Part shown: one piece after another, positions 13,903-64,000 of the stretch
Numbering within the stretch: position 1 is the first letter of the stretch
Layout of the letters: the number at the start of each line of letters is the position of its first letter
Source of the DNA: Lytechinus pictus
Taxonomy: Eukaryota
Assembly (NCBI RefSeq): GCF_037042905.1
Contig: NC_087245.1
Coordinates: forward strand, 17,610,001 to 17,674,000
DNA: 64,000 bases
Reading direction: 5' to 3'
Notes under the pieces: model-generated
Seen by the model: the letters and a program-made list of their open reading frames with translations, nothing else
What the model was told of the DNA's origin: nothing
Database searches by the model: none
Program-made: the position numbers and the translations under genes

Positions 13903-13949
<47 letters not shown>

Positions 13950-17532: not shown

Positions 17533-20500
17533 ATGGTAAGCTCATACTTTCTATTATTATTATTATTACTATTATCATTATTACTATTATCATTATCGCA
17601 GATTTCACACCCGTCATGATTTATCATGGACATAATTACGGTTTCATGATGTTTACTTTTACTTCTTAGGCCAATTTTCCATTTCCTTTCTTGGTCAATA
17701 AAAAAAAAATGAACTAAAATAGTTGCCTGTTATGTACATGTTGCACTCCTGTATTTGTCCCCCCCCCCCCCTCATCTCTCTCTCTCTATATATATATATC
17801 TCTCTCTCTCTCCCTCCTTGAACAGTCTTGAAAACAAGTCCTTATTCTTTTTTAATTTTCGATTTATTTAGGGAAAATTGATTTTGTATTCAGTTACGTC
17901 CATCACAATCGTCATGGAATTCTTAATTGATATCTCTTTCTGCTTCTTTCAGTCTGTCGTATGCTCATCACAGAGTTTGCCTATTTTCCTGTTCCTCATT
18001 GCAGTGAGTTTCGTTCATGGTGGTAAGTTTGAATTTGATATTTTGACCCTTTTTTATTTGTATTGATTATCATGATTACAAACAAAACATCTCATAATTA
18101 CTGTAGACAAAAAGAAAAACAACAGAAAAAATAACTAAAATAATAATCAGAATAACAATATCAATAAGAATATAAAGTGACCCGGTTTTTAATCATACAC
18201 TTCTTATAATATTTTTGCGATACATAAATCGCGGTATAATCTGTGAAGAGAATGTAATGTTGGATTGTAAACACTCGGAATGATCACGAATGTTTTATAG
18301 ATCCCGTGATCCCACTTTTATTTTTTGTAACTTCCAGTTTAGTTCATACTTCAGTACTTTACATATTTAAAAGAAATATTAGGGGAAACGCATAAACGAT
18401 CAAAATTACCGTCTTGTCGATTTTTTTTTACAATACAGTTGCTGAATTAAAAGAGCTTTGCGACCCAGACCCTGTATTATGTAAGAACATCACTCTATCT
18501 GGAGGGAGATCGATTCAACTCATTCCAAGATTAGCATCAACATCAAACGATCCTGAACCAGTTCTGGTAAAACTCCCATCTTGGCGCCATTTTGTCTGTG
18601 TTTTACCGAAAAGAAATGGTGAGTGCATAAAAACGATCTTCTACAGATATTTTAGACATGATAGGCCTATGTCCCCTTATATCATAAGATTTCGCAAAAA
18701 TATTTTCTAGGCTATTTGGATTACTGTTGCTCATTTCACCTTTCTTTAGATGGGTATTATGACCGGTTCCCTCGAGCCATTTGGCGCATCTACCTCCCGG
18801 ATCTTCCTGTTCCTATAATATGCTAAAGAGATACTGTAACCGGCGTGTGGTCTATCGTGTTTAAATATTTCTGGAGGAGCTGCATCTGTTACAGGTGCTC
18901 TTCGAATTGTTATTTTTGTGTGACATTGTAGAGTTTTGCTTCTGACCAAATTGCTTTGTTGCACCAAATATGCAAAAGTCTATACATGTTATTCATTGGC
19001 AGCGGAACGGTTTTGAAAGGGGGTGGGGCTGAACATACATAAAATCGCAATCATGGTCATTTTTGCGTTTTTGTACAAAGTTTTAGGAAAAGTGGGGCTG
19101 AAGCCCCTAGCACCCCCCCCCCCCCCCGTTCAGTGAGCCATGTTAATCTGTAAATGTGGAAGGGTCTGGTTATTTACAGACTTCATTATTAACTTTTCCC
19201 CTTGTTTGTCCTTCATTTCGGATCGTGCTTTCCTACTATCTTTTGCAAAGAGCGATTTTGTACGATTCGTATTGACTGCATCCTATGCAGTCTGCTTCCT
19301 TTTCTTGAACCATGGACCGTGTTTATCAGTGTTTCGTAAATATCTTATCGAGAATAGTACTTCTATACAATGTGCCTTTACACTATCTTCTATAGGCCGG
19401 CCAGACCGGATTCGTTAATGTTTTTGTTCTCTTCCATCATCATGATCATGTGTCCATGTTTCTACTACAGGAAGTTCTGTCCCAACACAATCACCATCCG
19501 TAAATAGTTTTTTAATTAGCATTATTATATCGTCTTTGTATTATTATGTCAATATCGTAGAGAATCCTACGGATACATCACCACCACTAGAAACTCTCGA
19601 TGGAGGAAGTTCGACAACCTCGCCAGAAATTTCATCCAGTGGATCAACTGAAGCTTCGTCAGAACAAGCAATGTCAGGCTCAGTAACTACTCCATCAGAA
19701 CCTACGACCAATGGTAAAACAAGCCCCCAGCCCCCCTTCTCGGTTCCGTGCCCATAATAATCTGTAAAAGCTCCATGGTTAAAGTGATAGGGTCTGATAA
19801 TACTTCCATAATGATTTTCCTCGTTTGTCCTTTATGTCGGATCATGCATTCCTCCTAACCTTTTTGCAGTTAGGTATCGCGATATTGTACGATTCTTATT
19901 GACCCAATCCTGTGCAGTCTTCTTCCTTTCCTTGAACCATGGATCATGTTTTTCATTGTTCCTTTAATGTCTCATCGAGAATAGTACTGCTATCAATGTT
20001 TCTTCTAGACCAGACGGGTTTTGCTAATGTTTTTGCTCTCTTCCATTCATCTATGATCTTCCATGTTTCTCCTACACGAAGTTCTTTCCCAACACAATCA
20101 CCATCGGTAATTGTTTTTTATGTCAATATCGTATAGATACTCCCATGGATGCATCACCGCCCCAAGAAACTCCTGGTGGAGGAAGTTCGACAACTTCACC
20201 AGAACTTTCTTCCAGTGGATCAACTGAAGCTTCGTCAGAACAAGCAATGACCCCAATGACAGGCTCTTCAACTACTCCATCAGAACCTACGACCAATGGT
20301 AAATCAAGCCCCCAGCCCCCCTTCTCGGTTCCGTGCCCATAATAATCTGTAATAGCTCCATGGTTAAAGTGATAGGGTCTGATAACACTTCCATAATGAT
20401 TTTCCTCGTTTGTCCTTTATGTCGGATCATGCATTCCTCCTAACCTTTTTGCAGTTAGGTATCGCGATTTTGCACGATTCTTATTGACCCAATCCTGTGC

Positions 20501-23500
20501 AGTCTTCTTCCTTTTCTTGAACCATGGATCATGTTTTTCATTGTTCCTTTAATGTCTCATCGAGAATAGTACTGCTATCAATGTTTCTTCTAGACCAGAC
20601 CGGTTTTGCTAATGTTTTTGCTCTCTTCCTTTCATCTATGATCTTCCATGTTTCTCCTACACGAAGTTCTTTCCCAACACAATCACCATCGGTAATTGGC
20701 TTTTATGTCAATATCGTATAGATACTCCCATGGATGCATCACCACCCCAAGAAACTCCTGGTGGAGGAAGTTCGACAACTTCACCAGAACTTTCTTCCAG
20801 TGGATCAACTGAAGCTTCGTCAGAACAAGCAATGACCCCAATGACAGGCTCTTCAACTACTCCATCAGAACATACGACAGACGATGCAGCGACAACTTTG
20901 TCACACCCTACAACAATTCCTTCTACGGAGGCTTTACCTGAAACCACAACAAAAGGAACTTCAGGTGTGAATTCGTGTAAGACGCTCTATTCAATGGGGC
21001 ATCAAACAAGTGGTGTCTATGCCATCTCTCCTAGCGGTGTGGGACTGACCGATGTCTACTGCGATATGACCACCGATAGCGGAGGGTGGACAATCTTCCA
21101 GGTACGTTCCGCCAGGTTCTCGGTGTGAAATGAATCTATCCGATGTTTATGTTTTATTAAGATGGTCAATATTTTTGCTTAATCGCATCTTTTTTTTTCG
21201 TTTTTCTTTTCTTTTCTTTTTTTAAAAGAACTTTTGCTCTATCCACCATTTCATTCTGGCCTCTTCATCATGTTAATATAGGCCAAATAAGTAGAATTTT
21301 GTAGACTTGCTCGCTTCGCCCGCTCACAATTTTTCTGAAATATTCCAACGTATCTAAACTCAACCTTCTCTTGCACGCTCACTATTCGATAATTTTTTTT
21401 CACATATCACATCCTTCACAATAATAATATGCATACAGAAACGTTATGACGGATCTGTGGATTTTTACCGCAATTATACCGAGTATGTTCGTGGATTTGG
21501 TGACGTCGAGGGCGAATACTGGTTGGGATTAGACCAACTCTACTTACTTGCTAAAGATGGAGTCGAACTCAGAATCGATATGGTTGATTACGATAACAAT
21601 CCATTCTACGCTCATTATGGCAGTTTTAGCATTGGAAGTACCAACACCAAGTAAGGTTCTTACAATTTTCCTTCGCTATAATTATAGAGAGAGCGTATGG
21701 AAAACGTTACATTTTGGAAAAGCTGTCAAAATTACGCTTATTAATGAAGTATCATTGTGTAATATCTCTAAAATCTTCTCTATTAGATGACACCACGAGA
21801 TATTTTGTTCATGCTTGAGCGCAAAACGACATGTTTTATCAGGGTGACGAGAATGGCTTGCACCATAATGAAGGAATGGGCAGTCAAATCAAATTATTTG
21901 CTCGAGTTATTAAGATCTTTTCACATACTATTTATTCTTGATTAGTACAGGATAGAAGAGGCATAACCTTGTTTTTACATATATATTATATTTTTTGATG
22001 GTTTATTGTCAATTTTAGAGTGCTGATTGCGAATCTGAATGATGCCACTCGTGTAACCTTGAGCATTTTCCGCAAATTGGCAAAATCCAATATGGCCGCC
22101 AAAATATGCAAATTACCAATGGAAATGCCCGCACATTGGCAACAAAATGCATGAAATTGTGTGGCAGGAGTGAAATACTCGCTGAAAAAATAATTTTTGA
22201 CAAAATATTTATTTTCTGGATCATAATGGCCGCCATAGGCCTCTGTATACTCTATTATGTACAACATGAATAGGGAAAACTTCACAAAAAATGAGCACTA
22301 AACTGCAAGAAATCGTGATCTATGAACGAAATTCTGTATGCAAATCGTCATTACTAACGAGATATATCATTTATTATATCATGTATGGGAACATTTCTGT
22401 ATTTTGATATTTAAAATAGCCGCCACTGGCCAAAACAGTATTATGTACAATGGCAAAGGGGGCCAAAAAAACCCACAAGAGTGAGCACTAAAATGCATAT
22501 TATTAAGATAAACGAGTGGAATACTGACTAAAAACATAATTGTTAGCGAAATTTATCATTTAATATGCCATGTATGTGATAAATGTTGTATTTTGATATT
22601 CAAAATTGCTGCCTAAGACCCTAACAGTATTATGTACAATGAGAAAGAGGACCAAAGAAATTACAAGAGGTGGCACTAAAATGCATATGTATGTGATAAA
22701 GTTACGTAATACTGTCTAAAAAAAACCATAATGAATATTCGTAGTACACGTAAATGGAGTAGATCTCCAACGAAATATAGTTTGTGTTAAATACTGTATT
22801 TTGAATTTCAAAATGGCCGCCATAGACATTGACTGTATTATGTATAATGCGAACTGGGAAACTAATATTCACAGGAGTGAGCACCATAAATGTACGTTAT
22901 AGTGATCCATGAGTAAAATATTGCCTGAAAGCATAATTTCTAACAAGATATATCATTTATTCTGCCAGTTAGGTGACAAATACTGTATTTTAAAAGTAAA
23001 AATGGCTACTACAGGCCCTTACGGTATATTATGTACCATGTAAATGGAAAAACATGATTTCAACAGATTTTGGCTTTGCTTGACTGAATGGTGTTGTATG
23101 AGTGAAATATTGTCTGAAAACATCATTTATAACAAGATATATCATATCTTGTGTAATTTAGGTGATAAATACTGTATTTAAACATTCAAAATGGCCGTCA
23201 TATGCCCTTTTGTGAAAATTATCTGTCCACATTCAAATTGACGATAAGGGCCTATGATGGCTATTTTCAATTTCAAAATGCAGCATTTTCAACTTAATTA
23301 CAGAAGATATGATATATCTCGGCAGAAACCATGGTTTTAGACAATATTTCACCCTTACATCACAATTATATGCAATATTTATAGTCAAGCAAAGCCAAAT
23401 TCTGTCAAAATTATATGTCACATGTTCCTATGTACATAATACTTTTAGGACCTATGGCAGCAATTTTGGATTTCAAAGTATACAGCATTTATTACCTCCA

Positions 23501-26500
23501 TGACCAATATGTGATGTATGTAGTTAGAAATCATGTTTAAGACAATATTTTTAATCGTACATAACAGTTACATGCATTTTATGATTCTCACTCTTGTGAA
23601 AATTAGTTTGGTTAGGGCTTGTAGCGGCTATTTTGAATGTCAAAATACAGTATTTATCACCTACATGGCAGAAGAAATGCTATAATTCCTTCAAAATTAT
23701 GTTTTCAAATAATATTTTACTCATACAACAGGATTATATGGATTTCATAGTCAAGCAAACCCAAATTCTTACAAAATTATATGTCCCCATTTACATTCTA
23801 GATAATACTGTTAGGGCCTTTATGGGCCAATTTTGAATTTCACAATACAGCATTTATCTCATGCATGACAAAAGAAATGATATGCCTCGCTAGAAAACAT
23901 GTTTTCAGACAAAATTTTACTCGTAGATCACAATTACATGCATTTTATGTTTCTTACTCTTGTGAAAAATAGTTTCTCCATTTGCATTGTACATAATAAA
24001 TATAGGGCCCATGGCGGCCATTTTGAATGTCAAATTATAGCATTTATCACATACATGGCATAATGAATAATATCTTTTGTTAACAATTCTGTTTTTAGTC
24101 AGTATTCCACTCGTTTATCTTAATAATATGCATTTTAGTGCTCACTCTTGTGAATTTTTTGGCCCCCATTGCCATTGTACATAATACTGTTTGGGCCAGT
24201 GGCGACTATTTTAAATATCAAAATACAGCAATTTTCCCATACATGACATAATATATATATCTCGTTAGTAATGGTGATTTGCATACTGTACTTCGTTCAT
24301 ATATCACGATTTCTTGCGGTTTAGTGCTCATTTTTGTGAAAATGAGTTTTCCCTATTCATGTTAAAAATAATAGAGTTTACAGAGGCCTATGGCGGCCAT
24401 TTTGAATATCCAGAAAATAGATATTTTGTCAAAAATTATTTTTTCAGAGAGTATTTCACTCCTGCCACAAAATTTCATGCATTTATTGCTAATGTGCGGG
24501 CAATTTTTATGACTTTCATGGGTAATTCACATATTTTGGCGGCCGTATTGGATTTTGCCAATTTGTGGAAAATGCTCAAGGTTACACGAGTGACATCATT
24601 CAGATTCGTAATCAGCACCCTCGAATTGACAAGCAACCATAAAAAAATATTGTATATATGAAAAAACAAGGTTCGTCAATTTTCTATGGGGCCAATCCTG
24701 GACTAAATCATGCTTAAAACAGCGGACAATAGACATTTTAAAAATCTATTTTGGGTATTCACATACGTGATTTTGACAGCTTTTTCAAAATGAAACGTTT
24801 ATCGTTCATCAAATTTTGATTTTTGTTTATATTGCTTATGTAATTCTACATTACACATTACTACCGAACCAACAGCAACGGTAATTATCATTTCCCTAAT
24901 CATCCCCGGGTAATTTGTGCCTTGTCACTCACGGGAAACCCCCCCCCCCCCCCCCCCGCTCGTAATCGCGATATCTGCGCGATGGCGGAAAATGACGGTT
25001 GCATCTTAGCAAACTTTCACTAAATCTATATTATCTTGTCCCATACACGGATTAACTATTTTTTTAAACTATGTTTTTTTATGGAATTTTTCGTCGATAC
25101 TTCAAAGTGCTATTTAAATCGAATGTTACAAGGGCCGCGAAACCGAAGGGGGAGGGGCGGGTGTTGCTTCATCTCTCCCAGTATTTAACCATTTTCACAA
25201 AGAGTGAAAATGACCAACGATTTTATGCTTGCCCCCCCCCCCCTCGCTTTCCATATCGTTCTGCAGCCCCTCTGTAAAAAGATACAGTTACTAATTTTGA
25301 CTAGAAACAGAGTTTACATTGGATTTGTGCATGAAATCACTTTTTTATAGCAAATTTGGGCCTAACAATAACCATGAACAGATGACCAATAAACAAATTA
25401 CGATAATTTAAGGGGTACTCCAGGCTGAAAATGATATGATTTAAAAAAGATTTAAAAAAAATAGACAAACAAAACACTGAAGAATTGTTTGAAAATGGAC
25501 AAGGAATAAAAAAGTTATGACATTATATAGATTTGCATTATTTCGGTGAAACAGTTCTAAACATGTCTTCATGAGTAGACCGATAATATCATATCCCCAC
25601 TTGTTCTTTTGTATTTTTTTACATGAAAGTATGTTTATTCATTTTTTTCTTTAAGAACAAAATATAAAAGGATAGACAATTGATATAATATTTGAGATAT
25701 TCATGGCTGCAACTTATTTTATAATGATAAAGATATATCACACACACATGTATGAAAATATGAAATAAATATGATTTCATGTAACAACATAAAAAGGTAA
25801 AGTGGGGAGGTGACATCATCAGCCCACCTACTGAATATTCATGCAACGTTCATATAACTGTTTCACAATATTGCTGAATTTTACTATAGGCAAATATACT
25901 TAGATATAATAATTTTCAACCCGAAGTAACCCTTTATTCTGATGTTGATTACATTTTCAATGTAATGCTTGTTTAAATTTATTTCAAAGTAAATGAATAA
26001 AGATATTAATGGATGAATTGAAAAAAAATAGATAAAATATAATGACGTGACAAAAAATTAATGAATTACAAAATAATATTTATGCACGGAGCATTTTTCA
26101 ACTTAGGGGCCCTACGAAAATAAGAAGTAAAAATAAAGGTGCTGATACTTAGAACCTCGGGTGCGATACGTCAGACATATTTTCATTATATTTTCTCTTC
26201 AATCGCAATCTTGAATTTACATGACTGTTTTAAGGTTCTATATAGTCTTAGACTAAATTAAATTTAATGTATGTATTTACTATCTTCAACAAAGCTACCG
26301 AATCGGGTTTTCATCATATACCGGTACTGCAGAAGAAGGGCTAGATGCAGCCAACGGACAAGCCTTCTTAACTTATGACAATGACCATGATGATTGTGCT
26401 TTTCTGTACAGAGGGGCGTGGTGGTATAACGACGTATACTGTGATACCACAGCCAACTTGAATGGGGATCACGGACTCCAATATGGTTTTACAGGGATTT

Positions 26501-26556
26501 TTTGGGATTTCCCTAACTCAAAATACATGAGAGCTACAGAAATGAAGTTAAGATGA
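17533..26556 (+). CDS. Secreted mucin-stalk fibrinogen-related protein (FReD; ficolin/MFAP4/tenascin-C-terminal-like), copy A
   Basis: Manual exon model with GT/AG junctions and consistent phases: 17533-17535 (ATG|gtaagc), 17953-18022 (signal peptide SVVCSSQSLPIFLFLIAVSFVHG), 18439-18618, 19561-19713, 20137-20298, 20722-21101 (mucin then SCKTL..SGVYAISP..VYCDMTTDSGGWTIFQ), 21439-21650 (KRYDGSVDFYRNYTEYVRGFGDVEGEYWLGLD..LRIDM), 26295-26556 (YTGTAEEGL..NGQAFLTYDNDHD..GAWWY..NLNG..TEMKLR*). Total 1422 nt, 473 aa, open frame. The FReD motifs are unambiguous; the N-terminal exons are less certain. Confidence 0.88.
19175..20870 (+). repeat. 585-bp intron+exon tandem repeat (3 units) building the mucin stalk; also ~59930-61605; 2 units in copy B
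   Basis: Exon starts at 19561, 20137, 20722, with homologous preceding introns. Confidence 0.92.
21943..24705. mobile_element. Academ-like non-autonomous foldback element in the last intron of copy A
   Basis: TAG..CTA ends (tagtacaggat / atcctggacta) and ~1-kb imperfect inverted arms with internal repeats. The 3-bp TSD AAT is preserved in copy B. Confidence 0.7.
25411..25933. mobile_element. Old Kolobok-like MITE in the last intron (copy ~42561-43306)
   Basis: Ends aggggtactccaggctgaaaat / attttcaacccg(a/g)agtaaccct with degenerate TTAA-like flanks. Confidence 0.5.
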
Positions 26557-27357
26557 TCGGATTGATCCATGTTGTTGTCATTCCTTTCTACCTAATTTTT
26601 GAAGTTCTTATACATAGTTATTTTAAAGCACAATGTAGTCCAAGTGATTGTGTATATTAGAGAATCACTTGAAAAACAGGAATAAGCAATTTAAACATAT
26701 TTCATGTAATGATCTATATCTATAATGGATTTCATGTCAACATGGTAACACGAACATGGGCCTCATGTTTCGGAGGGGGGGGGATGGGCTGCTCACGTAT
26801 AATGGTAGAACCGGTACGTGGCTCTTAAGACCCCTTTTCACTCATTGACCAACCCGTTCTCCCTCGCTCATTCATGTCCTAACTAAGCCCTTTATTTTAT
26901 TCGTCAGTTCTCGATGACCACATTTCATTGTAAATTCCACCCACCCCCCCCCCCAAAAAAAAAATGCAGAACTTCAGTTCTTATGAGTATGGCATCTGAT
27001 TTTCTGGCCAAACATCCGTATCCTTTCCAATCCGAGTGGGGGGGGGGGTGCCTCTCACTGAAAACCAGTCCAGAATGATAGTCCTTTCTCAAGAGCTTTC
27101 AAGACACTGGACCCTGGTTCATTTCACACCTTAAGGGCGCCACCTATTGCTGTTCTTTACCAGGAAACGAAACAAAACTGTTTATTCATATTTATTTATC
27201 AAAACCTAATAGACAATCATTATTCGGAGTTGTTAAAACTCATATTAGTGAAAAGTGCGTAAGTTTCAATATTTTACATCAAATCCAGACAATAACAGAC
27301 TGTCATGAAAATAGCATTTTTCTCGTGACAATTTTATTTCCACTCTACAAAATCCCA

Positions 27358-27575
27358 GCCATGGCGTAATTTCTTTCAGCAAGAAATTTATCCACATTGT
27401 GCTGCACTCAACCCAGGTGAGGTGAATGGGTACCCGGTAGGAAGAAATTCCTTGAATGCTTGAGCAGCCCAGCTAAAGCCAGGGTAATAATAATAGCAGG
27501 GCCTGCTGGGAGAACAGTTTTCAGAACTGAAGTGGCTTCCCTGTGTAAATATACCTATATAACTATATTATTATA
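27358..27575 (+). mobile_element. 5'-truncated SINE relic (copy ~44735-44952)
   Basis: Core cactcaacccaggtgaggtgaatgggtacc resembles conserved metazoan tRNA-SINE core domains and is followed by an (ATT)-like tail. Recognised from memory, not by database search. Confidence 0.55.
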
Positions 27576-30458: not shown

Positions 30459-33400
30459 ATTTGACCTCAGGAATAACATACTAAAAATCTACCAAAATCG
30501 GGGCATCCGGGGCTAAGTGGTTATTTTCAACATGGCGTCCAAGATGGCCGCAATTCACTGAAAATGGATACAACTGACTTATTATCCACCCTAGAATCCT
30601 ATTTCGGTTAATAATCCATGGTCTAGGGGTAAAAAATGTTGATACAGGCTAAAGTGAATTATAGCACCTCCAGTGTACCTGGCAAATCCAAGATGGCGCC
30701 CAAAATGGCTGCCGTAGACTGAAAATCCACAATTCATCTAAGTGGCTTTAATTTTGTTTTTATTCAATGGTTTTTAGGGTGAAGTAGTACATTTGAACAA
30801 GTTACAAGGACAGCCAGTGGTCTAGTGTGTCCAAATATCCAAGATGGCTTAAAAAAATGTTTAAAATGGCTGTTGATCATTAAAATGGACATAGTTCATT
30901 TCATATCCACCTGGGACATAATCAGGGGCGTAGACAACGGGGGGGGGGGGGGATGAGGGGGATGCATCCCCCCCACCTCACAAGGTGGGGGGGATGGCAT
31001 GTACAATCATCCCCCCAGGTTTTGGGGAATGATATTTGGTTACTTAATAAGTCATAATGATGATAATAATAGTAATAATAATAATGATAACAACTATAAT
31101 ATTAATAATAATAATAATTATGATGATGATAATAATAATCCTCATCATTATTGTAATTGTGTTTATTGTTATTAGCCGCATTCACACGGTGAAAGCCAAT
31201 TCAGACGGTAAAAAAAAGGAAAATCTTACAAGTATTTTGTGGTTATCTTGTGGTTTGGAAAGGGTCAAATAATACATTAGGATAAGTTACAAGGAGTGTC
31301 AGTGATCTGATATGTCCAAACATCGAAGATGGCTTCCAAAAATTGATCTTAAAAATAGGCTGCTTATTCTTAAAGCGGACAAAGCTCATTTCATATTGGC
31401 CCGAGAGATGCGATTTTGGTATCTAAACCACAGTGGTTTCAAGGGTCAATTAATACATTAGGATAAGTTACAAGGACTGTCAGTGATCTGATATGTCCAA
31501 AAATCGAAGATGGCTTCCAAAAATTGATCTTAAAAATAGGCTGCTTATTCTTAAAGCGGACAAAGCTCATTTCATATCGGCCTGAGAGATGTGATTTTGG
31601 TGTCTAAACCACTGGTTTCAAGGGTCAAAATATTCATTAGGACAAGTTTTAAGGACAGTCAGTGGTCTGGTATGACCAAAAATCCAATATGGCTTCCAAA
31701 AATTGATTCTAAAATGGCTGCTAATACTTATTTTATATCCGCCTGTGATTTGATTTCGGTGTCTAAACTATGGTTTTAAGGGTCAAATCATATATTAGGA
31801 CAAGTTACAATGACAGTCAGTGATCTAGTATGTCCGAAATTCCAAGATGGCTTCCAAAAATGGAGTTAAAATATGTCTGATGTTACTAATAAAATGAGAT
31901 AGTTTGTTCAATATGTGTCTGGGGAATATGAGTTCGGTGTCTAAACCATGGTTTAAAGGGCCTAGTAATACACTAGGGTAAGTTACAAGATGACTTGAAA
32001 AATGGGGTGAAACTTGACTGTTGTTACTTAATTACAAATACACCTCGGAGGTATGATTTTACTGTCTACACTATAGAGTTTAAAGGGTCAAGTAATACAT
32101 TGGGTTAAATTGAAAGGACAGTCAGATGTCAGGTATGTCCGAAAATTGAAGATGGCTTTAAAATTGGGGGTCTTAAATGACTGTTGTTACTTAAAATTAG
32201 ATAGAGAACATTACAAATACACATTGGGGATATTATTTTGGTATCTACACTATAGGGTTTCAAGGGTAAAAAAATACTTTGTGACTGGTTACCATGATAT
32301 GCAGTTATCCATTTTGCCTTAAAATCCAAGTTGGCTGTAAAAATGGGTTGTAAAGTGACTGCTGTTAATTAAAAATTGACATAGTTCATACAGTATCCAC
32401 CTGTGAAAAATAATCTTGGTGCCTACACTTAAATGCATGGGGATAAATTATCATATTGTTTCATGAGTTGGTAACAGCACCCATTTTGATGAAATTTTAG
32501 AATCCGCCATGGATTTTTTTGACAAAATGGAATACTAACCATCCTTATTACTTGTCCGAATGTATCATTTGACCCTTCATACCAAAATTTAAACACCAAC
32601 ATTATTTCTTACAGATAGATATTGCAGAACTCTGACCATTATTGAGTGATATGAATCGTTTTAGATGTCTTTTTTGAAAACCCTCTTGGACAACTGCATA
32701 TCCATGTAACCAGTCCAAACGTATTATTTCAACCATGAAACCAAAGTGTGTACACCGAAATCATATCTTCTTGGTGGATTTTAAATGAACTATGTCAATT
32801 TTAAAAGTAACAGCAGTCACTTTAGAGTCCGATTTTTTGGAAGCCATCTTGGAATGACGACATACTGGACCACTGACTGTCCTTGTAACTAATTTTCTGA
32901 CTTTTAAAACCATGGTAAAGACATCGAAATCATATACCCTTGATGGATATTACATGAGCTATATCCATTTGTAAATACCAGCGGCTAATTTATACTATTT
33001 TTTAAGCCACTGTGGACTTTTGGGCAAACTTTGACCACCCTTCGTCCTTTTAACTTATCCCAATGTATTATTTGACAATTGAAAGCATGGTCTAGACACC
33101 GAAATCATATCTCCCAGGTGGATATTATATGAGCTATGTCAATTTTAAGTATCAACAGCCATTTTAAACTCAATTTTTGGAAGCCATCGTGGATTTTTGG
33201 ACACACCAGACCACTGGCTGTCCTTGTAACTTGTACCGATGTACTACTTCACCATCAAAACCATTGAATGAAAACAAAATTAAAGCCACTTAAGTAAGTA
33301 ATAAATGAATTTTTTGTTTTTTAGCCTCCGGAAGCCATTTTGGGCGCCATCTTGGAATTTCCTGGTACCCAAGAACACTAATATTCACTCTAACTTGTAT

Positions 33401-33583
33401 CAATAAATTATTTTACCCACTGGAACATGGAATATGTACCTAAATAGGATTCTAGGGTGGATAATGAGTGAGTTATATCCATTTTCAGTGAATGGCGGCC
33501 ATCTTGGACGCCATCTTGAAAATAACTACTTTCCCACATGCGGATTTTGGTAGATTTTTAGTATGTTATTCCTGAGGTCAAAT
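30459..33583. mobile_element. Foldback-type element upstream of copy B only; ~130-bp internal repeats, nested hAT fragment and (ATA)n
   Basis: atttgacctcaggaataacatactaaaaatctaccaaaatc at 30459 is the reverse complement of the sequence ending at 33583. Lies within a block (~30371-34046) absent upstream of A and C. Exact termini and TSD not resolved. Confidence 0.7.
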
Positions 33584-34451: not shown

Positions 34452-34458
34452 TATAAAA
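34452..34458 (+). promoter_or_regulatory. Candidate TATA box of copy B
   Basis: TATAAAA at the position paralogous to 17374. Confidence 0.45.
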
Positions 34459-49900: not shown

Positions 49901-52476
49901 AGCGCACAGCGCTAGCTCATAGGCCTTTATTATTTTTTTTACAATCGAGACACCTGAAAAGGTATATTTAGAGAATCTTATATGAAATATAAAAAGACAA
50001 TAGGTAGACCTACTTGGCAAATAGTGCGAGCGCACAAAATGTTGCAAATGTTGATTCAAACCATAAAACGGACATTTTCCAGAGCACTTAAAAACATAAA
50101 TTGGTAAATAAAACAAAATAATGAAAGATCGATGTCCGAGCTGAATTATGTTTTGTACATTAATATCCAAACTTGATATTTTAAACTACATATCAGCCTA
50201 TTGAGCAAGATATGTATCTCATCGAACAGGCAATGCGAGCGCGATGCGCGAGCGAAACTTTAATATAGTGACATTGAATATTAAAAACAAATTGTTTTCC
50301 AAGTCTTCTCCTGACCTTATTTTATTCACTCGTCTTCCTCCTTTTATGTTTCGTCTTCTTTTTTCTCCTTTCTTTCCCCCTTTTTTTTTCTTTCCCCGTT
50401 TTTCACAATTTATTTGCTCTGTCAATAGGGGGGAGGTTGCCCTCGGGCGGCCTCGATCCGCCTATGTTAGTAGTTGTTATGATGAACACGATGCATATCT
50501 ATTAAGAAATGAATGCGACCGCGAAGCGCTAGCTGAAAACTTTTATAATGATGAAATGAAAAATACATTTTCAGTTGTCAGGTTAGAATATCAAATATTT
50601 TCAGCTTGTGCTGCTCGTTCGCATAAAAAACTGTAAGGTCGGGATGCGTATATGACTAAACAATTTATTGATGCCAGCGCGAAGCGCGAGCTCAATTTTG
50701 TATATACTGACTTAGGAAGGACTAAGGTATAATTCCTATTCTTGAAGCAGAGGATGCATACCTCATTAATCAATTATTGCGAGCGCGTAGCGCGAGCTGA
50801 ATTTGATAATAACTTTTTTTTGTGACCCTGAACAGGGTATCTATCTCGCTAAACAGACTTAAAACTCGAAAACATTGTTTTTTCTGTGATCGTAAAAACG
50901 GGATATTTTAATTCAGCCGCATTAATTTAAGTTTTTTGGGCAGGACATATATTTTACTATAAACAGGCAATACGAGCAATGTTGCGCCCCCGGTCGAAAA
51001 TTAATTTGCATGAAGCCCTCTAAGTTCAAGGTCAATTTGGCGCCCTCGGTTGAACATAAACTTGGCGCCCCCATGTGAAATATAACTTTGCCCTCCCTCC
51101 CCCTCTCTGAAACATGTATTTGTCGCATTATGGTCAAAATTCAAATTAGCGCTCCCCTAGTTCGAACATCAATTCGGTGCCCCGCTAGATCGAACATCAA
51201 TTCGGCGCCCCATAGTTCGAACGTCATTTTGGCGCCATCAAATCGACGTCCAGGGGAGCGTTTCATTAAAGGACTTGTCGGACGTTTTATCTGACAAGTC
51301 CCCTTTTATCCGACAGTTACCATAGAAACAGTGACTCTCAAAATAAAAATTAAGGAAAGATATCAGATCTGACAATTTGTCGGACAAAAATGTTGATGAA
51401 ACGCTCCCCAGGTCAACATCTCCCTCTTCCGTTTCGCATCTCCCTTTCTTTCTTTTTTCTTTCTCTTATCCTCATTCCCCTTCCTTCCTTTCTCTTTCTT
51501 TCTCTCTTTCGTTCCCCCTCTTCTTTCCCCCCTTTTCTTCTCTTTTCCCCCATCTTTTCTTTCCCCCTTTTCTTCTCTTTTTCTGTCTTTTCTTTCCCTC
51601 TTTTCCTCTCTCTTTTCTCGTTTTTCCTCTCTTCCTCCCTTACTCTCTCTTTTTTTCTTCTCTTTTCCTCTCTTCCTCTCTCTCTCTCTTTTCTTATCTT
51701 TCTTCCCATCTTCCTCTCTCTTTAAATATTATTCTCTTCCTTCCTCTTTTTTTCTTCTTCTTTTCCCCCTTTTCGTTATTCTTTTCTTTTTCTTTCCTTT
51801 CCCCCTTTTTTCTCTTTTAATTTTTTTCTTCTCTCCCTCCCCTTCCTCCCTCTCCCTCTTTCTTCTCTTTCTTTCCCCTCCTCCTCTCTCTCTCTCTCTC
51901 TTTTCTTATCTTTCTTCCCATCTTCCTCTATTTAAAAATTCTTCTCTTCCTTCTTTTTTTTTTCTTCCTTTTCCTCCTTTTCCTTTCTCCTTTCTTTTCT
52001 TCTCTTCTTTTTCCCTCCTCTTTTTTTCCTCTTCTTTCCCCTTTTCTTCTCCCTTTTTTCCTTTGTCTTTCCTTTCCCCTTTTTCTTCTCTTCTTCTCTT
52101 ACTTTCTCCTTCTTACTCTCTCTTCTATTCTCTTCTTTTCCCATCTTCCTCTCTCTTTTTTTATTCTCTCTCTTTTCCCCTCTTCCCCCTCTTTTTTTGA
52201 GCTGGGGTGGGGGGGGGGGGTGAGGCAGTTCCCCCTCCGCCAACCATGGATCCGCACCTGATAGAACCCCATGGCCTCGTATCATTTGACATTTGGACCT
52301 CTCGATGACATTTGATATATCTGATCATAATTTTACACACACTGCGGACTATCGGACCCGCGGTCTATCGGACCCGCGGACTATCGGACCCGCGGTCTAT
52401 AGGACCCGCGGTCTAACGGACCCGCGGTCTATCGGACCCGCGGTCTAACGGACCCGCGGTCTATCGGGATGTCCCC
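46978..52476. mobile_element. TIR element with GG..CC ends, 16-bp subterminal repeats and 8-bp TSD AGAACACG (Merlin- or Mutator-like); partial copy at 1-5465
   Basis: TSD at 46970-46977 and 52477-52484. Arrays of (ccgatagaccgcgggt)n and its reverse complement at both ends. Inverted arms extend several hundred bp inward. Confidence 0.75.
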
Positions 52477-54711
52477 AGAACACGAGCCCTCTCGCCTCTG
52501 TAAAAAATGGCTCCTCGTTGACCGCGCTGTCCTGTCTTTTCGCCTTTTTACGGAAGCTTAAGAGTGCCACCGAGATGACGAGATAATTCATCGTCTTCTC
52601 GACTTTTTTGGTCCGAGAAGGCGAGAAGGCGTGATCCGGCATCTCGTCTTCTAAGCCTTTTTTGGTCCAATAAGGCGAGAAGGTGAAATTCCAAATCACG
52701 TTTTCCCGACTTCTCGGGTACGAGAAGGGGAAAAGGCGACATTTGGAATCTCGTCTTACCGACTTCTCGGGTACGAGAAGGGGAGAAGGCGACATTCCAA
52801 TTCTCGTCTTCCCGACTTCTCGGGTACGAAAAGGGGAGAAGGCGACATTCCGAATATCGTCTTCCCGACTTCTCGGGTACGAGAAAATGAGAAGGCGAGA
52901 TTTGGAATCTCGTCTTCCGACTTCTCGGGTACGAGAAGGTGAGAAGGCGAGATTTGGAATCTCGCTTTCTCATCTGCTCATACCCGAGAAGTCGAGAAGA
53001 CGAGGTTTGGAATCTCGCTTTCTCACCTTCACATACCCGAGAAGTCGAGAAGACGAGATTTGGAATCTCGCTTTCTAATTTCCTCATACCCGAGAAGTCG
53101 AGAAGACGAGGTTTGGAATTTCGCTTTCTCACCTTCACATACCCGAGAAGTCGAGAAGACGATATTTGGAATCTCGCTTTCTCATCTTCACATACCCGAG
53201 AAGTCGAGAAGACGAGATTTAGAATCTCGCTTTCTCATCTTCGCATACCCGAGAAGTGGAGAAGACGAGATTCCAAATGTCGCCTTCTCATCTGCTCATA
53301 CCCGATAAGTCGAGGAGACGAGATTTAGAATCTCGCTTTCTCATCTTCACATACCCGAGAAGTCGGGAAGACGAGATTTGGAATCTCGCTTTATCGCCTT
53401 CTCGTATCCGAGAAGTCGAGAAGACGAGATTTGGAATTTCACCGTCTCGCCTTATAGGACAAAAAAAGGCTGAGAAGACGAGATACCGGATCACGCCTTC
53501 TCGCTTTATCGGACCCAAAAAGTCGAGAAGACGAGGAATTATCTCGTCATCTCGGTGGCACTTTTAAACATCCGTAAATATTGCCTGATTAGATACATAA
53601 TCCCGTTCAAGAGGATTAAATGGAGCCATGCATTTTCAAGTCATACACCAAATATTTTTCCTCGAGCGCTCGCCTGGCCTAATTCGCTTTGTGAATTAGG
53701 ATATCCCTCGCTTCGCTCGGGAAGCAGCCGCCAGGGCCTCGACAAGCATGACAAGAGGCTACGTCAGTGGCTGTTCAGACAGCAGCATCAAATGCAGCAC
53801 CATCAACCGGAAAAATTATACAGTAAAAATTATTTCTACAGGAGCACCTCAAGGCTCAGTCCTTGGGCCGCTGCTATTTACCATCTTTATTAACGATCTA
53901 CCAATACAAGTCGAGACGTTTTCTCATGTACTGTTGTAATGTTTGGTCTAATCGATTTCTAAACAATAACGAAATACTTAATCAACTGCACAAGCGAGCA
54001 GCGTATAGGGCTATTATATCCGGTTTCTCTTGGATGACCCCATCAAAACAGGTATTTTATCAACTTACAACCAGCACAACAAAATGTTGATTTGATTTGA
54101 ATAAAAAGAGAAAAATCCAAAAAGCATAACACTTAAAATTTCATCAGAATCGGTTGTAAAATGAGAAAGTTATGACATTTTAAAGTTTTGCTTAATTTCA
54201 AATTTTCTCCTCATCGTCAAGTGAAATAACGATTAATTCTTCCCTGAACCCGTGGAATTAACATCGTATAGCTGTGCATGGACGTCATTGGACGAAGCGG
54301 GTATTGGACGAAACTGGGTCGACGGACGAACTGACTGACAATTTGGTCGAAATGATTATGTCGGGGCACTGTGGGCAATGGTAATGGACCTGAATCAGCA
54401 AAGCCCCCCCCCCCCCCCCAAAAAAAAAAAAAAAAAAAAAACGAAAGAAGGAAGGAAAGAAAAATGGGCTAAGGTAATCAATTTCAATGGGGTTTTATTG
54501 ACCAAATGTCGTATATTCCCTGGAATCTTTCTGTCATCTGACAGAAGAAAAAAAAAGACACCTTTGTTTCAAGACTCGTGAAATTTACAAACATTTTTAG
54601 GTGTAAGTCATGAATATTCATATATTCCCATGTCCCACTTTTTAAATACATTTTTTAGTTATTTATCTGCATCTTCACTTCGTTATTGCGTTGTTTTAAG
54701 TTATACTAATT

Positions 54712-57466: not shown

Positions 57467-57473
57467 TATAAAA
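57467..57473 (+). promoter_or_regulatory. Candidate TATA box of copy C
   Basis: TATAAAA at the position paralogous to 17374. Confidence 0.45.
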
Positions 57474-57605
57474 TGTTGATATCATTACTGTAACAACGGC
57501 ACATTCAGATGAACAAATTCTTAATTCTGAGAGAGGAACTATACCTCTTTCACATTTCACGAAACTATTTGAAGATTTCCTTCTGCTGCTCTCAGGACTC
57601 GGTGC

Positions 57606-57867
57606 ATGAAAAAAACATCAGTAATCATGGTAAGCTCATACTTTCTATTATTATTATTATTACTATTATCATTATTACTATTATCATTATCGCAGATTTC
57701 ACACCCGTCATGATTTATCATGGACATAATTACGGTTTCATGATGTTTACTTTTACTTCTTAGGCCAATTTTCCATTTCCTTTCTTGGTCAATTAAAAAA
57801 AAATGAACTAAAATAGTTGCCTGTTATGTACATGTTGCACTCCTGTATTTGTCCCCCCCCCCCCTCA

Positions 57868-57898
<31 letters not shown>

Positions 57899-60800
57899 CT
57901 CTCTCCCTCCTTGAACAGTCTTGAAAACAAGTCCTTATTCTTTTTTAATGTTCGATTTATTTAGGGAAAATTGATTTTGTATTCAGTTACGTCCATCACA
58001 ATCGTCATGGAATTCTTAATTGATATCTCTTTCTGCTTCTTTCAGTCTGTCGTATGCTCATCACAGAGTTTGCCTATTTTCCTGTTCCTCATTGCAGTGA
58101 GTTTCGTTCATGGTGGTAAGTTTGAATTTGATATTTTGACCCTTTTTTATTTGTATTGATTATCATGATTACAAACAAAACATCTCATAATTACTGTAGA
58201 CAAAAAGAAAAACAACAGAAAAAATAACTAAAATAATAATCAGAATAACAATATCAATAAGAATATAAAGTGACCCGGTTTTTAATCATACACTTCTTAT
58301 AATATTTTTGCGATACATAAATCGCGGTATAATCTGTGAAGAGAATGTAATGTTGGATTGTAACATAGCCAATCCTTACTATCTTTTCAACAGTAAAGTA
58401 AATTGTGGAGAAAACACTCGGAATGATCACGAATGTTTTATAGATCCCGTGATCCCACTTTTATTTTTTGTAACTTCCAGTTTAGTTCATACTTCAGTAC
58501 TTTACATATTTAAAATAAATATTAGGGGAAACGCATAAACGATCAAAATTACCGTCTTGTCGATTTTTTTTTACAATACAGTTGCTGAATTAAAAGAGCT
58601 TTGCGACCCAGACCCTGTATTATGTAAGAACATCACTCTATCTGGAGGGAGATCGATTCAACTCATTCCAAGATTAGCATCACCATCAAACGATCCTGAA
58701 CCAGTTCTGGTAAAACTCCCATCTTGGCGCCATTTTGTCTGTGTTTTACCGAAAAGAAATGGTGAGTGCATAAAAACGATCTTCTACAGATATTTTAGAC
58801 ATAATAGGCCTATGTCCCCTTATATCATAAGATTTCGCAAAAATATTTTCTAGGCTATTTGGATTACTGTTGCTCATTTCACCTTTCTTTAGATGGGTAT
58901 TATGACCGGTTCCCTCGAGCCATTTGGCGCATCTACCTCCCGGATCTTCCTGTTCCTATAATATGCTAAAGAGATACTGTAACCGGCGTGTGGTCTATCG
59001 TGTTTAAATATTTCTGGAGGAGCTGCATCTGTTACAGGTGCTCTTCGAATTGTTATTTTTGTGTGACATTGTAGAGTTTTGCTTCTGACCAAATTGCTTT
59101 GTTGCACCAAATATGCAAAAGTCTATACATGTTATTCATTGGCAGCGGAACGGTTTTGAAAGGGGGTGGGGCTGAACATACATAAAATCGCAATCATGGT
59201 CATTTTTGCGTTTTTGTACAAAGTTTTAGGAAAAGTGGGGCTGAAGCCCCTAGCACCCCCCCCCCCCCCCCCCCCGTTCAGTGAGCCATGTTAATATGTA
59301 AATGTGGAAGGGTCTGGTTATTTACAGACTTCATTATTAAAGGAGAATGAAACTCTTGGAGCAAGTTAGCTTTTGTGAAAGCAGAAAAATCAAAGAATAA
59401 GATCAACAAAACTTTGAGTAAAATAGGACTAGCAATAAAAGGGTTATGAGCATTTGAATGTCGAGATCACTAATGCTATGGAGATCCTCCCATTGGCAAT
59501 GCGACCAAGATCTGTGATGTCACACACGTACAACTCTCCCATTCGGACACTGAAAATATACCCCAAAACATCTCTTTTTGCTCATTCTAATCATATGACA
59601 AACGATTCATCAATGATATAATGTTGTAAAACCTCTGTACTTGTCATCTCATAAAGAAAACACCTAACCTTGTGATAGACTCTATAAAAGTGAGAATATA
59701 AGTGAAATAAGTACTAAAGTAATGTGGGAGTTGTACGTGTGTGATATCACAGATCTTGGTCGCATTGCCGATGGGAGGATCTACATGGCACTAGTGATCT
59801 CAATATTCAAATGCTCATAACTTTCTTATTATTCATTCAATCTTCCTCAAACTTTTAACAATATGTTTCTTTGATTTTTCTCTTTGATATGGATTCAGCT
59901 AGTTTCAAGGGTTTCATTCTCCTTTAACTTGTCCCCTTGTTTGTCCTTCATTTCGGATCGTGCTTTCCTACTATCTTTTGCAAAGAGCGATTTTGTACGA
60001 TTCGTATTGACTGCATCCTATGCAGTCTGCTTCCTTTTCTTGAACCATGGACCGTGTTTATCAGTGTTTCGTAAATATCTTATCGAGAATAGTACTTCTA
60101 TACAATGTGCCTTTACACTATCTTCTATAGGCCGGCCAGACCGGATTCGTTAATGTTTTTGTTCTCTTCCATCATCATGATCATGTGTCCATGTTTCTAC
60201 TACAGGAAGTTCTGTCCCAACACAATCACCATCCGTAAATAGTTTTTTAATTAGCATTATTATATCGTCTTTGTATTATTATGTCAATATCGTAGAGAAT
60301 CCTACGGATACATCACCACCACTAGAAACTCTCGATGGAGGAAGTTCGACAACCTCGCCAGAAATTTCATCCAGTGGATCAACTGAAGCTTCGTCAGAAC
60401 AAGCAATGTCAGGCTCAGTAACTACTCCATCAGAACCTACGACCAATGGTAAAACAAGCCCCCAGCCCCCCTTCTCGGTTCCGTGCCCATAATAATCTGT
60501 AAAAGCTCCATGGTTAAAGTGATAGGGTCTGATAATACTTCCATAATGATTTTCCTCGTTTGTCCTTTATGTCGGATCATGCATTCCTCCTAACCTTTTT
60601 GCAGTTAGGTATCGCGATTTTGTACGATTCTTATTGACCCAATCCTGTGCAGTCTTCTTCCTTTTCTTGAACCATGGATCATGTTTTTCATTGTTCCTTT
60701 AATGTCTCATCGAGAATAGTACTGCTATCAATGTTTCTTCTAGACCAGACCGGTTTTGCTAATGTTTTTGCTCTCTTCCATTCATCTATGATCTTCCATG

Positions 60801-62382
60801 TTTCTCCTACACGAAGTTCTTTCCTAACACAATCACCATCGGTAATTGGTTTTTATGTCAATATCGTATAGATACTCCCATGGATGCATCACCGCCCCAA
60901 GAAACTCCTGGTGGAGGAAGTTCGACAACTTCACCAGAACTTTCTTCCAGTGGATCAACTGAAGCTTCGTCAGAACAAGCAATGACCCCAATGACAGGCT
61001 CTTCAACTACTCCATCAGAACCTACGACCAATGGTAAATCAAGCCCCCAGCCCCCCTTCTCGGTTCCGTGCCCATAATAATCTGTAATAGCTCCATGGTT
61101 AAAGTGATAGGGTCTGATAACACTTCCATAATGATTTTCCTCGTTTGTCCTTTATGTCGGATCATGCATTCCTCCTAACCTTTTTGCAGTTAGGTATCGC
61201 GATTTTGCACGATTCTTATTGACCCAATCCTGTGCAGTCTTCTTCCTTTTCTTGAACCATGGATCATGTTTTTCATTGTTCCTTTAATGTCTCATCGAGA
61301 ATAGTACTGCTATCAATGTTTCTTCTAGACCAGACCGGTTTTGCTATTGTTTTTGCTCTCTTCCTTTCATCTATGATCTTCCATGTTTCTCCTACACGAA
61401 GTTCTGTCCTAACACAATCACCATCGGTAATTGTTTTTTATGTCAATATCGTATAGATACTCCCATGGATGCATCACCACCCCAAAAGACTCCTGGTGGA
61501 GGAAGTTCGACAACTTCACCAGAACTTTCATCCAGTGGATCAACTGAAGCTTCGTCAGAACAAGCAATGACCCCAATGACAGGCTCTTCAACTACTCCAT
61601 CAGAACATACGACAGACGATGCAGCGACAACTTTGTCACACCCTACAACAATTCCTTCTACGGAGGCTTTACCTGAAACCACAACAAAAGGAACCTCAGG
61701 TGTGAATTCGTGTAAGACGCTCTATTCAATGGGGCATCAAACAAGTGGTGTCTATGCCATCTCTCCTAGCGGTGTGGGTCTGACCGATGTCTACTGCGAT
61801 ATGACCACCGATAGCGGAGGGTGGACAATCTTCCAGGTACGTTCCGCCAGGTTCTCGGTGTGAAATGAATCTATCCGATGTTTATGTTTTATTAAGATGG
61901 TCAATATTTTTGCTTAATCGCATCTTTTTTTCGTTTCTCTTTTCTTTTCTTTTTTTAAAAGAACTTTTGCTCTATCCACCATTTCATTCTGGCCTCTTCA
62001 TCATGTTAATATAGGCCAAATAAGTAGAATTTTGTAGACTTGCTCGCTTCGCCCGCTCACAATTTTTCTGAAATATTCCAACGTATCTAAACTCAACCTT
62101 CTCTTGCACGCTCACTATTCGATAATTTTTTTCACATATCACATCCTTCACAATAATAATATGCATACAGAAACGTTATGACGGATCTGTGGATTTTTAC
62201 CGCAATTATACCGAGTATGTTCGTGGATTTGGTGACGTCGAGGGCGAATACTGGTTGGGATTAGACCAACTCTACTTACTTGCTAAAGATGGAGTCGAAC
62301 TCAGAATCGATATGGTTGATTACGATAACAATCCATTCTACGCTCATTATGGCAGTTTTAGCATTGGAAGTACCAACACCAA
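57606..62382 (+). CDS. Secreted mucin-stalk fibrinogen-related protein, copy C (3' partial; last exon lies beyond the window)
   Basis: Exons 57606-57629 (MKKTSVIM), 58046-58115, 58582-58761, 60296-60448, 60872-61033, 61457-61836, 62171-62382. All are in frame and nearly identical to copy A. Confidence 0.85.
59341..59923. mobile_element. 583-bp Kolobok-like MITE, TTAA TSD, copy C only
   Basis: ttaa-aggagaatgaaac..gtttcattctcct-ttaa. Empty TTAA at 19189-19192 in A. Internal inverted repeat also present. Confidence 0.88.
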
Positions 62383-62674
62383 GTAAGGTTCTTACAATTT
62401 TCCTTCGCTATAATTATAGAGAGAGCGTATGGAAAACGTTACATTTTGGAAAAGCTGTCAAAATTACGCTTATTAATGAAGTATCATTGTGTAATATCTC
62501 TAAAATCTTCTCTATTAGATGACACCACGAGATATTTTGTACATGCTTGAGCGCAAAACGACATGTTTTATCAGGGTGACGAGAATGGCTTGCACCATAA
62601 TGAAGGAATGGGCAGTCAAATCAAATGATTTGCTCGAGTTATTAAGATCTTTTCACATACTATTTATTCTTGAT

Positions 62675-64000
62675 TAGTACAGGATAGAAGAGGCATAACC
62701 TTGTTTTTACATATATATTATATTTTTTGATGGTTTCTTGTCAATTTTAGAGTGCTGATTACGAATCTGAATGATGCCACTCGTGTAACCTTGAGCATTT
62801 CCCGCAAATTGGCAAAATCCAATATGGCCGCCAAAATATGCAAATTACCCATGAAAATCATAAAAATTGCCTGCACATTGGCAACAAAATGCATGAAATT
62901 GTGTGGCAGGAGTGAAATACTCGCTGAATAAATAATTTTTGACAAAATATATATTTTCTGGATCATAATGGCCGCCATAGGCCTCTGTATACTCTATTAT
63001 GTACACCATGAATAGGGAAAACTAATTTTCACAAAAAATGAGCGCTAAACTGCAAGAAATCGTGATCTATGAACGAAGTTCTGTATGCAAATCGTCATTA
63101 CTAACGAGATATATCATTTATTATATCATGTATGGGAACATTTCTGTATTTTGATATTTAAAATAGCCGCCACTGGCCAAAACAGTATTATGTACAATGG
63201 CAAAGGGGGCCAAAAGAATCACAAGAGTGAGCACTAAAATGCATATTATTAAGATAAACGAGTGGAATACTGACTAAAAACATAATTGTTAGCGAAATTT
63301 ATCATTTAATATGCCATGTATGTGATAAATGTTGTATTTTGATATTCAAAATTGCTGCCTAAGACCCTAACAGTATTATGTACAATGAGAAAGAGGACCA
63401 AAGAAATTACAAGAGGTGGCACTAAAATGCATATGTATGTGATAAAGTTACGTAATACTGTCTAAAAAAACCATAATGAATATTCGTAGTACACGTAAAT
63501 GGAGTAGATCTCCAACGAAATATAGTTTGTGTTAAATACTATATTTTGACTTTCAAAATGGCCGCCATAGACATTGACTGTATTATGTATAATGCGAACT
63601 GGGAAACTAATATTCACAGGAGTGAGCACCATAAATGTACGTTATAGTGATCCGTGAGTAAAATATTGCCTGAAAGCATAATTTCTAACAAGATATATCA
63701 TTTATTCTGCCAGTTAGGTGACAAATACTGTATTTTAAAAGTAAAAATGGCTACTACAGGCCCTTACGGTATATTATGTACCATGTAAATGGAAAAAAAT
63801 GATTTCAACATAATTTGGCTTTGCTTGACTAAATGGTGTTGTATGAGTGAAATATTGTCTGAAAACATCATTTATAACAAAAATATATCATATCTTGTGT
63901 AATTTAGGTGATAAATATTGTATTTAAACATTCAAAATGGCCGTCATATGCCCTTTTGTGAAAATTATCTGTCGTCATTCAAATTGACGATAAGGGCCTA
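62675..64000. mobile_element. Academ-like element, copy C (truncated by window end)
   Basis: Same left end and sequence as 21943 onward. Confidence 0.7.

Follow-up and report, generated by a model that had tools for sequence, protein, structure and literature searches.

A 64,000-nucleotide stretch of the sea urchin Lytechinus pictus genome (the window; contig NC_087245.1, positions 17,610,001 to 17,674,000, forward strand) contains three members of a tandem gene family whose products end in a fibrinogen-related domain (FReD). Judged from its sequence, this young tandem array likely encodes secreted, probably oligomeric recognition lectins with tips diversified against microbial or other foreign surfaces, a reading to which we give a probability of roughly 0.58. 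The evidence centres on a nearly invariant scaffold carrying a highly variable ligand exon that is exchanged between gene copies.

Self-comparison reveals three tandem units, 92-98% identical and split by unit-private repeat insertions. Each carries one plus-strand gene: A (17533-26556), B (34612-43932) and C (57627 to past 64000), with the last exon of C lying outside the window. At the DNA level, A and C are ~98% identical over 8 kb, while A/B blocks are 92-97% identical. All 19 modelled introns (A 7, B 6, C 6) have GT..AG borders. The eight coding exons of copy A give a frame of 473 amino acids that is found letter-for-letter inside the L. pictus RefSeq protein XP_063961219.1; copy B equals XP_063961235.1 downstream of a broken exon, and copy C equals XP_063961243.1 at both ends tested. 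The three young paralogues proposed in a preliminary description of the DNA letters are thereby confirmed. That description had also called for copies to be counted beyond the window. Cluster look-ups returned 15 current L. pictus RefSeq proteins on one 44.3-Mb contig, which we read from isoform labels and shared ends as ~12 genes on one chromosome. A whole FReD is present in 11 of these, and one RefSeq model stops after the middle FReD exon. The RefSeq names angiopoietin-like, MFAP4-like and fibrinogen alpha-like are arbitrary for these genes.

Nine distinct last exons occur among the 11 genes, with two gene pairs sharing an identical one. It is extremely improbable that the copies are largely assembly artefacts, in which one or two loci appear several times through uncollapsed haplotypes or repeated contigs. 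The close A/C identity, the two pairs with identical last exons and a chimeric model in an older annotation (P0009) are what such an origin would predict; some gene pairs could indeed be uncollapsed alleles. However, nine distinct last exons exclude a pure haplotype artefact, needing at least five loci at two haplotypes each. Each unit also has its private insertions, several last-exon types recur in older-annotation models, and four contigs from one sequencing run (X1, below) cover a single last-exon position. The array is almost certainly more than one real locus.

In trees of two domain parts, a single branch sets off the 11 L. pictus copies (with unstarred support of 62/82 and 94/90), so the expansion probably postdates the split from L. 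variegatus. The idea that the last-exon types are older than this split was unsupported, since both trees place the L. pictus copies together. A partial relative in Strongylocentrotus purpuratus (57% identity) has only a short linker in place of the stalk, and the long stalk of the family therefore looks recent. Sea-cucumber FReDs found here are 37-44% identical to the family. Recent amplification, as first proposed, holds up and comes with signs of birth and death, namely the broken exon of B and the RefSeq model without a last exon.

Variation among the paralogues is strongly concentrated at the protein tip. Across the 11 genes, 44 of 91 columns vary in the last exon compared with 8 of 115 in the first two FReD exons (38/91 and 5/115 in an earlier nine-gene count), in agreement with the proposed diversity of the ligand subdomain. 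Mean distances are 17.6% and 1.7% respectively, a ratio of 10; for comparisons with L. variegatus this ratio is 2.6, and with the S. purpuratus relative it is 1.7. The reading frame survives all indels in the last exons of the 11 genes, and both cysteines of the P subdomain persist. Between copies A and B, 16 of 81 aligned last-exon codons differ, in addition to in-frame indels, with 15.5 non-synonymous and 3.5 synonymous changes (proportions of sites changed, pN 0.083 and pS 0.063). Set against a non-coding A/B background of 2.4% (158/6468), the 8.3% divergence at non-synonymous sites is elevated (Poisson P about 9e-5). The middle FReD exon (A 21439-21650, B 38413-38624, C 62171-62382) is identical in A, B and C; over its 212 nt, ~5 differences would be expected from the background and 0 are seen (P 0.006). 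The A/B pattern is what diversifying selection at the tip and constraint on the scaffold would produce. In a distinct FReD group of the purple urchin (P0102, P0116 and P0125) the same skew is seen, with differences of 3.5-6% in the first two exon regions and 23-32% in the ligand subdomain.

To locate the variable positions, the last exon was numbered against FIBCD1, with functional residues taken from the available text of PMC3908420. The hot spots correspond to the calcium loop and the S1 ligand pocket of FIBCD1. Columns with five states align with residues 397-399 in the calcium loop and 404 in the helix beside the pocket; further change is found at 422 and around 430-443, while core aromatic and asparagine residues stay fixed. 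Equivalents of the calcium ligands Asp393 and Asp395 are kept in 10 of 11 copies, one copy having lost both. In 3 of these 10, the following four calcium-loop residues are absent, making calcium binding uncertain there. The last exon of copy A (26295-26556) has a calcium loop four residues shorter and a longer loop at the second Cys; that of copy B (43668-43932) has a full-length calcium loop. Their Pfam scores are 38 and 64.7 bits respectively. The His415 equivalent is Tyr in 11/11 copies, as in H-ficolin, which has been solved with galactose and fucose. The Tyr405 equivalent is kept in 8/11 and replaced by Cys in 3/11. At 431 and 443, where the alignment is looser, Tyr431 and Trp/Tyr443 are not kept and no aromatic match is seen. 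With Tyr in place of His415 throughout and no Tyr431, one would predict ligands that lie beyond plain N-acetyl groups and differ between copies. The extra Cys at the Tyr405 position occurs in P0005, P0012, P0016 and P0022, which are three L. pictus copies and the S. purpuratus relative, and could be free or in a new bond.

The domain assignment itself is secure. Pfam Fibrinogen_C matches exceed the cut-off on all three FReD exons, and the A- and P-subdomain Cys pairs are present in 7/7 Lytechinus proteins, with the second P-subdomain Cys shifted two places in A-type copies. A structure model of XP_063961243.1 is confident over the FReD only, where the predicted local distance difference test (pLDDT) is mostly >90. 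The best Foldseek match is M-ficolin (E 4.9e-25, template-modelling score 0.90 on the target, root-mean-square deviation 1.5 Å). As ficolins, FIBCD1, tenascin and MFAP4 are matched about equally, the fold picks no function. The analogy drawn in the preliminary description to tachylectin-5 and ficolin lectins stands for the FReD fold; it is weaker at the binding site, where the family has not retained the acetyl pocket of tachylectin-5A, FIBCD1 and M-ficolin.

Copy C is a recombinant of A and B in which the ligand exon has been exchanged between scaffolds. In a three-way alignment (A 16967-19190 and 20845-23254, excluding the stalk repeats between), C groups with A at 101 of the 104 two-way informative sites as far as A 21862. 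Up to A 22899 the signal is mixed, 14 sites favouring A and 8 favouring B, and from A 23053 to the window end all 8 sites favour B. The RefSeq model of C carries the last exon of B, residue for residue. The changeover falls within the long intron that precedes the last exon (A coordinates about 21860-23050); in copy A this is a 4.6-kb intron (21651-26294) holding a multicopy inverted-repeat element, and in C (62383-64000) it passes from A-like to B-like as the gene runs past the window. Each of the four possible pairings of 5' markers with last-exon type is represented among four genes. The exchange would have run through unequal crossing over or conversion. This invites a bolder and rather doubtful proposal, namely a germ-line cassette system: the entire ligand-binding subdomain occupies one exon behind a long, repeat-rich intron, and unequal crossing over would move that exon from one interchangeable scaffold to another. 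Given the near-invariance of the scaffold, the copies would then co-assemble into mixed oligomers, and a dozen genes with their haplotypes could provide each urchin with its own combinatorial recognition repertoire. If true, this would be a second rapidly diversifying sea-urchin immune family beside Transformer, built within Lytechinus.

The proteins are ordered as a hydrophobic N-terminal exon, a three-Cys exon, two or three Ser-, Thr- and Pro-rich exons of phase 1-1, and a three-exon Fibrinogen_C domain, as first described. In copy A, the start codon ends exon 1 (17533-17535, with a GT donor next and a TATA-like motif ~160 nt upstream), and exon 2 (17953-18022) encodes the predicted signal peptide. 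The corresponding segments are 34612-35085 in B, comprising the start codon shared with A, the first intron and the signal exon (35016-35085), and 57627 and 58046-58115 in C; in both B and C, another in-frame ATG precedes the start codon shared with A by 21 nt. The N-terminal segment has a hydrophobic core of ~11-13 residues, a Pro within the core in most copies, small residues at -3/-1 and a mean 19-residue hydropathy peak of 2.07. These features would suit a cleaved signal peptide, although the hydropathy peak would also be compatible with an uncleaved anchor such as that of FIBCD1.

The next exon (A 18439-18618, phase 1-1; C 58582-58761) spans 180 nt and encodes 59-60 residues with three Cys; in B (35558-35739) it is broken by an early stop and a 2-nt frameshift, as evident from the sequence and the RefSeq comparison. 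This orphan exon has no Pfam match at E up to 1, no usable Atlas match and no confident fold in the structure model. A comparison with 1.84 billion representatives gave one match, itself a family member, and all 7 matches among 15 candidates are from Lytechinus. The sole link outside is a 13-residue match (9 identical, pairwise E 0.001) between the end of the exon and a partial S. purpuratus model (XP_011667941.1). A proposed similarity to the N-terminal region of protein P0024 was rejected. Three Cys, together with the arrangement known from ficolin and MFAP4, suggest by analogy that the odd third Cys may be a free thiol for inter-chain disulfides. Following the Cys exon, all three copies hold a 145-nt splice-site-flanked segment (A 18750-18894, B 35871-36015, C 58893-59037) with the same stop and an off-frame length; a dead or never-used exon, it is skipped in transcripts (joint 18617 to 19560). 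Compared with the FReD start, the Cys exon scores 1.2 bits and the dead segment 2.8 bits, each equalled by 14 of 2000 shuffles, whereas the true exon scores 53.4 bits; any likeness of the two to decayed FReD starts is weak and post hoc.

In copy A, the stalk is encoded by exons 19561-19713 and 20137-20298, the latter within a 585-bp tandem duplication of intron plus exon, and by a third unit fused to the first FReD exon (20722-21101; PF00147 E 1.2e-08). Copy B has one stalk exon (36647-36799) and a longer stalk-plus-FReD exon (37631-38079), and copy C has stalk exons 60296-60448 and 60872-61033 and a stalk-plus-FReD exon at 61457-61836. The stalk is thus 189 residues in A and 158 in B; with the broken Cys exon of B and the differing last exons, this upholds the modular variation noted earlier. 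Stalks of 84-189 residues contain 41-46% Ser plus Thr, 12-13% Pro, 1-2% Lys plus Arg and zero Cys. None of seven proteins has a run of four Gly-X-Y triplets. The composition before the FReD is unsuited to a coiled coil, and the structure model shows no helix and a pLDDT <50 at residues 60-165, in line with the original claim that neither collagen nor an evident coiled coil is present. Precomputed Pfam annotation gives PF00147 only for all family members and no immunoglobulin superfamily (IgSF) domain. No longer or fused form of the family was seen among the best 120 of 291 matches at 659-2000 residues, which is weak evidence. Proteins annotated with both PF01410 and PF00147 were rejected as relatives, being tandem FReDs.

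Four of seven listed sequencing runs were aligned, to copy A only and at 85% likeness. Run X1, consisting of contigs whose RNA nature is a tool's guess, supports five GT..AG joints at a depth of 160-460: signal to Cys exon, Cys exon to stalk 1 (skipping the dead segment), stalk 1 to stalk 2, and both FReD introns. Run X2 reaches a depth of ~4 with no exon joint listed, while X5 and X7 (raw RNA reads, ~6% sampled) gave 2 junction reads each, including in X5 the joint of the stalk-plus-FReD exon that is also seen in X1. The family is transcribed and spliced, strongly in one run and nearly silent in three others, and transcripts, on which the preliminary description had made its case depend, do exist. 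At position 26469, all four X1 contigs present differ from copy A; the X1 last exons are therefore those of other alleles or paralogues.

Taken together, these features are consistent with a secreted chain that would present a calcium-dependent FReD head on an extended stalk, the latter probably O-glycosylated and so acting as a spacer. Chains would probably oligomerise through disulfides at the odd third Cys and contacts via the invariant part of the FReD. Each paralogue would then offer a different binding surface, with duplication, loss and exon exchange renewing the set under selection by microbes.

An unlikely alternative takes the stalk as the main working part: the proteins would be components of mucus, matrix, an adhesive, a defensive surface secretion or wound repair that bind host glycans or proteins, with the tip tuning partners. 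The length and Ser/Thr content of the stalk, expression strongly restricted to one of four runs, and the PDB relatives MFAP4 and tenascin, which score like ficolins, would suit such a role, as would the 21-gene tandem sea-cucumber cluster of fibrinogen-related proteins (FREPs) induced in regeneration, according to the available text of PMC5638244. It offers no clear reason, however, for 9 binding exons on a near-fixed scaffold, and the short linker of the S. purpuratus relative makes the long stalk a recent addition. Lectins occur in pedicellarial secretions of this urchin family, for which our literature search gave no confirmation.

Restricted expression and fast divergence after the L. variegatus split would also fit gamete-coat or self/non-self recognition ligands, which we consider very unlikely. 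The ascidian egg-coat protein v-Themis is a polymorphic fibrinogen-like protein in gamete recognition, but it is described in the accessible part of PMC8849226 as multi-allelic and nested in a receptor-gene intron, whereas here there are ~12 tandem paralogues. The v-Themis genes lie antisense to the PKD-like s-Themis gene that holds them. The list of open reading frames in the window, which is not a gene search, shows no evident long partner-gene frames. Individuals of L. pictus are of separate sexes, a further point against such ligands.

Several observations weigh against recognition lectins under diversifying selection. A and B are the one DNA-level pair behind the last-exon selection figures, and their ratio of non-synonymous to synonymous rates (dN/dS) shows no significant excess over 1 (P 0.55). 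Synonymous sites are also above background, if not significantly (P 0.16), and an older converted-in segment would look the same; conversion from an older paralogue would thus fit the A/B pattern as well. As a control, 74 other FReDs were compared in 2701 pairs; among the 39 closest, the last/upstream ratio is 3.0 in the same direction, a value biased upward by the use of 90%-cluster representatives, and one unrelated S. purpuratus pair differs by 3.5% and 32%. The skew therefore appears to be a general habit of expanded FReD families that is strong here. The S1 acetyl pocket (Tyr405, His415, Tyr431, Ala432, Trp/Tyr443) is not conserved. Within the window, less than 200 bp of C is B-like. Protein look-ups found two isoforms of one gene in L. 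variegatus, a lower bound for the comparison of copy number. The main text of PMC11688612, on L. pictus larval infection, contains none of six FReD or lectin terms. Finally, tandem FReD expansions are already published in several phyla, as the available texts on sea cucumber (PMC5638244), snail (PMC7588048) and mosquito (PMC10874582) describe.

Some of the same observations would be expected if the pattern were a by-product of an unstable, repeat-rich region, in which genes duplicate under relaxed selection, conversion happens to keep the upstream exons alike, and the last exon is left to drift or decay. The broken Cys exon of B and the RefSeq model without a last exon, the lower Pfam score of the last exon of A (38 versus 64.7 bits), the loss of both calcium aspartates in one copy, the non-significant dN/dS and the many repeat insertions in the units all lean this way. 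We nevertheless regard it as distinctly unlikely: the last-exon indels are all in frame and both P-subdomain Cys persist, change clusters at loops while core aromatic and asparagine residues are fixed, the middle FReD exon has no differences where ~5 are predicted, and spliced transcripts exist.

If the recognition-lectin reading holds, the array is a very young, still recombining recognition family near its birth (~12 L. pictus genes versus at least one in L. variegatus), in which change is almost confined to a few loops of a binding site whose structure is well known. Larval immunity is studied in L. pictus as a laboratory model, according to the accessible text of PMC11688612. As the natural variants differ nearly only at the pocket, it would be directly testable whether the diversity of invertebrate FReD paralogues translates into different binding specificities.

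The remainder of the window is rich in repeats. A composite repeat at 1-6630 recurs at 46990-53535, with inverted 16-bp arrays (1-155, 5333-5456) adjoining a 53-bp satellite; another 53-bp array, inverted, lies at 46124-46881. A 6.8-kb insertion upstream of A and not of C (8020-14831) contains nested long inverted repeats and is probably made of non-autonomous DNA transposons. An insertion found only in the B unit (30459-33583) has inverted ends and contains tandem repeats of 181 bp and 158 bp. Stalk-region introns hold two small insertions whose termini are inverted, one private to C (59340-59924) and one to B (36879-37188). In the last intron of B, a 223-bp inverted duplication (42690-42912, matching 25538-25771) is found inside a high-copy repeat. 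At 27350-27430, thousands of RNA reads on an abundant-repeat fragment run off into tRNA-like sequence, and this fragment is therefore probably the 3' part of a short interspersed element transcribed elsewhere.

The literature search found no account of this family or architecture, with supplements and most subscription papers outside its scope, and hence no described orthologue of the kind that the preliminary description had asked about. The genes are already in RefSeq under generic names, and they are not a new kind of system, tandem FReD expansions being known. The nearest case is the FREP cluster of Apostichopus japonicus (21 genes), also an echinoderm, lineage-specific tandem expansion of fibrinogen domains; it is tied to regeneration, and the available text of PMC5638244 makes no mention of a mucin stalk, orphan exon or exon exchange. 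The FREPs and sFReDs of Biomphalaria and the FBN proteins of Anopheles are likewise expanded invertebrate FReD families with defence roles, as far as the accessible texts go (PMC7588048 for snail, PMC10874582 for mosquito). For snail sFReDs, fibrinogen-domain diversity has been proposed to widen recognition (PMC7588048, in part). However, Biomphalaria FREPs have one or two IgSF domains and a coiled-coil interceding region, neither of which occurs in the urchin family, and in the same source the fibrinogen domain is their conserved part, whereas the FReD tip is the variable part here. The purple-urchin SpTransformer (Sp185/333) genes are also clustered and mosaic through duplication, conversion and unequal crossover. 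They encode unrelated proteins with established immune induction, according to the portion of PMC3342357 available, while the FReD array is known from sequence and sequencing runs.

Angiopoietins and ANGPTL proteins, the source of one RefSeq label, have a coiled coil before the FReD that the urchin stalk lacks. FIBCD1 and tachylectin-5A share with the family the calcium aspartates (10/11 urchin copies) and the P-subdomain disulfide; in contrast, His415, Tyr431 and Trp443 are not kept in the urchin copies, and FIBCD1 is a membrane protein (PMC3908420, available text). In lectins of this type, avid binding comes from oligomers of FReD heads. With ficolins, the family has in common the fold, an N-terminal Cys segment, a spacer and a C-terminal FReD, as well as the Tyr after the second P-subdomain Cys seen in H-ficolin. 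Ficolins differ in having a collagen region where the urchin proteins have a Ser/Thr/Pro stalk; the acetyl pocket is not conserved in the urchin copies, which number ~12 near-identical paralogues. By domain and fold, these are FReD proteins that lack the features defining ficolins, gastropod FREPs, angiopoietin-like proteins and the acetyl-binding FIBCD1 and tachylectin-5, and yet, by analogy, they may possibly work like them.

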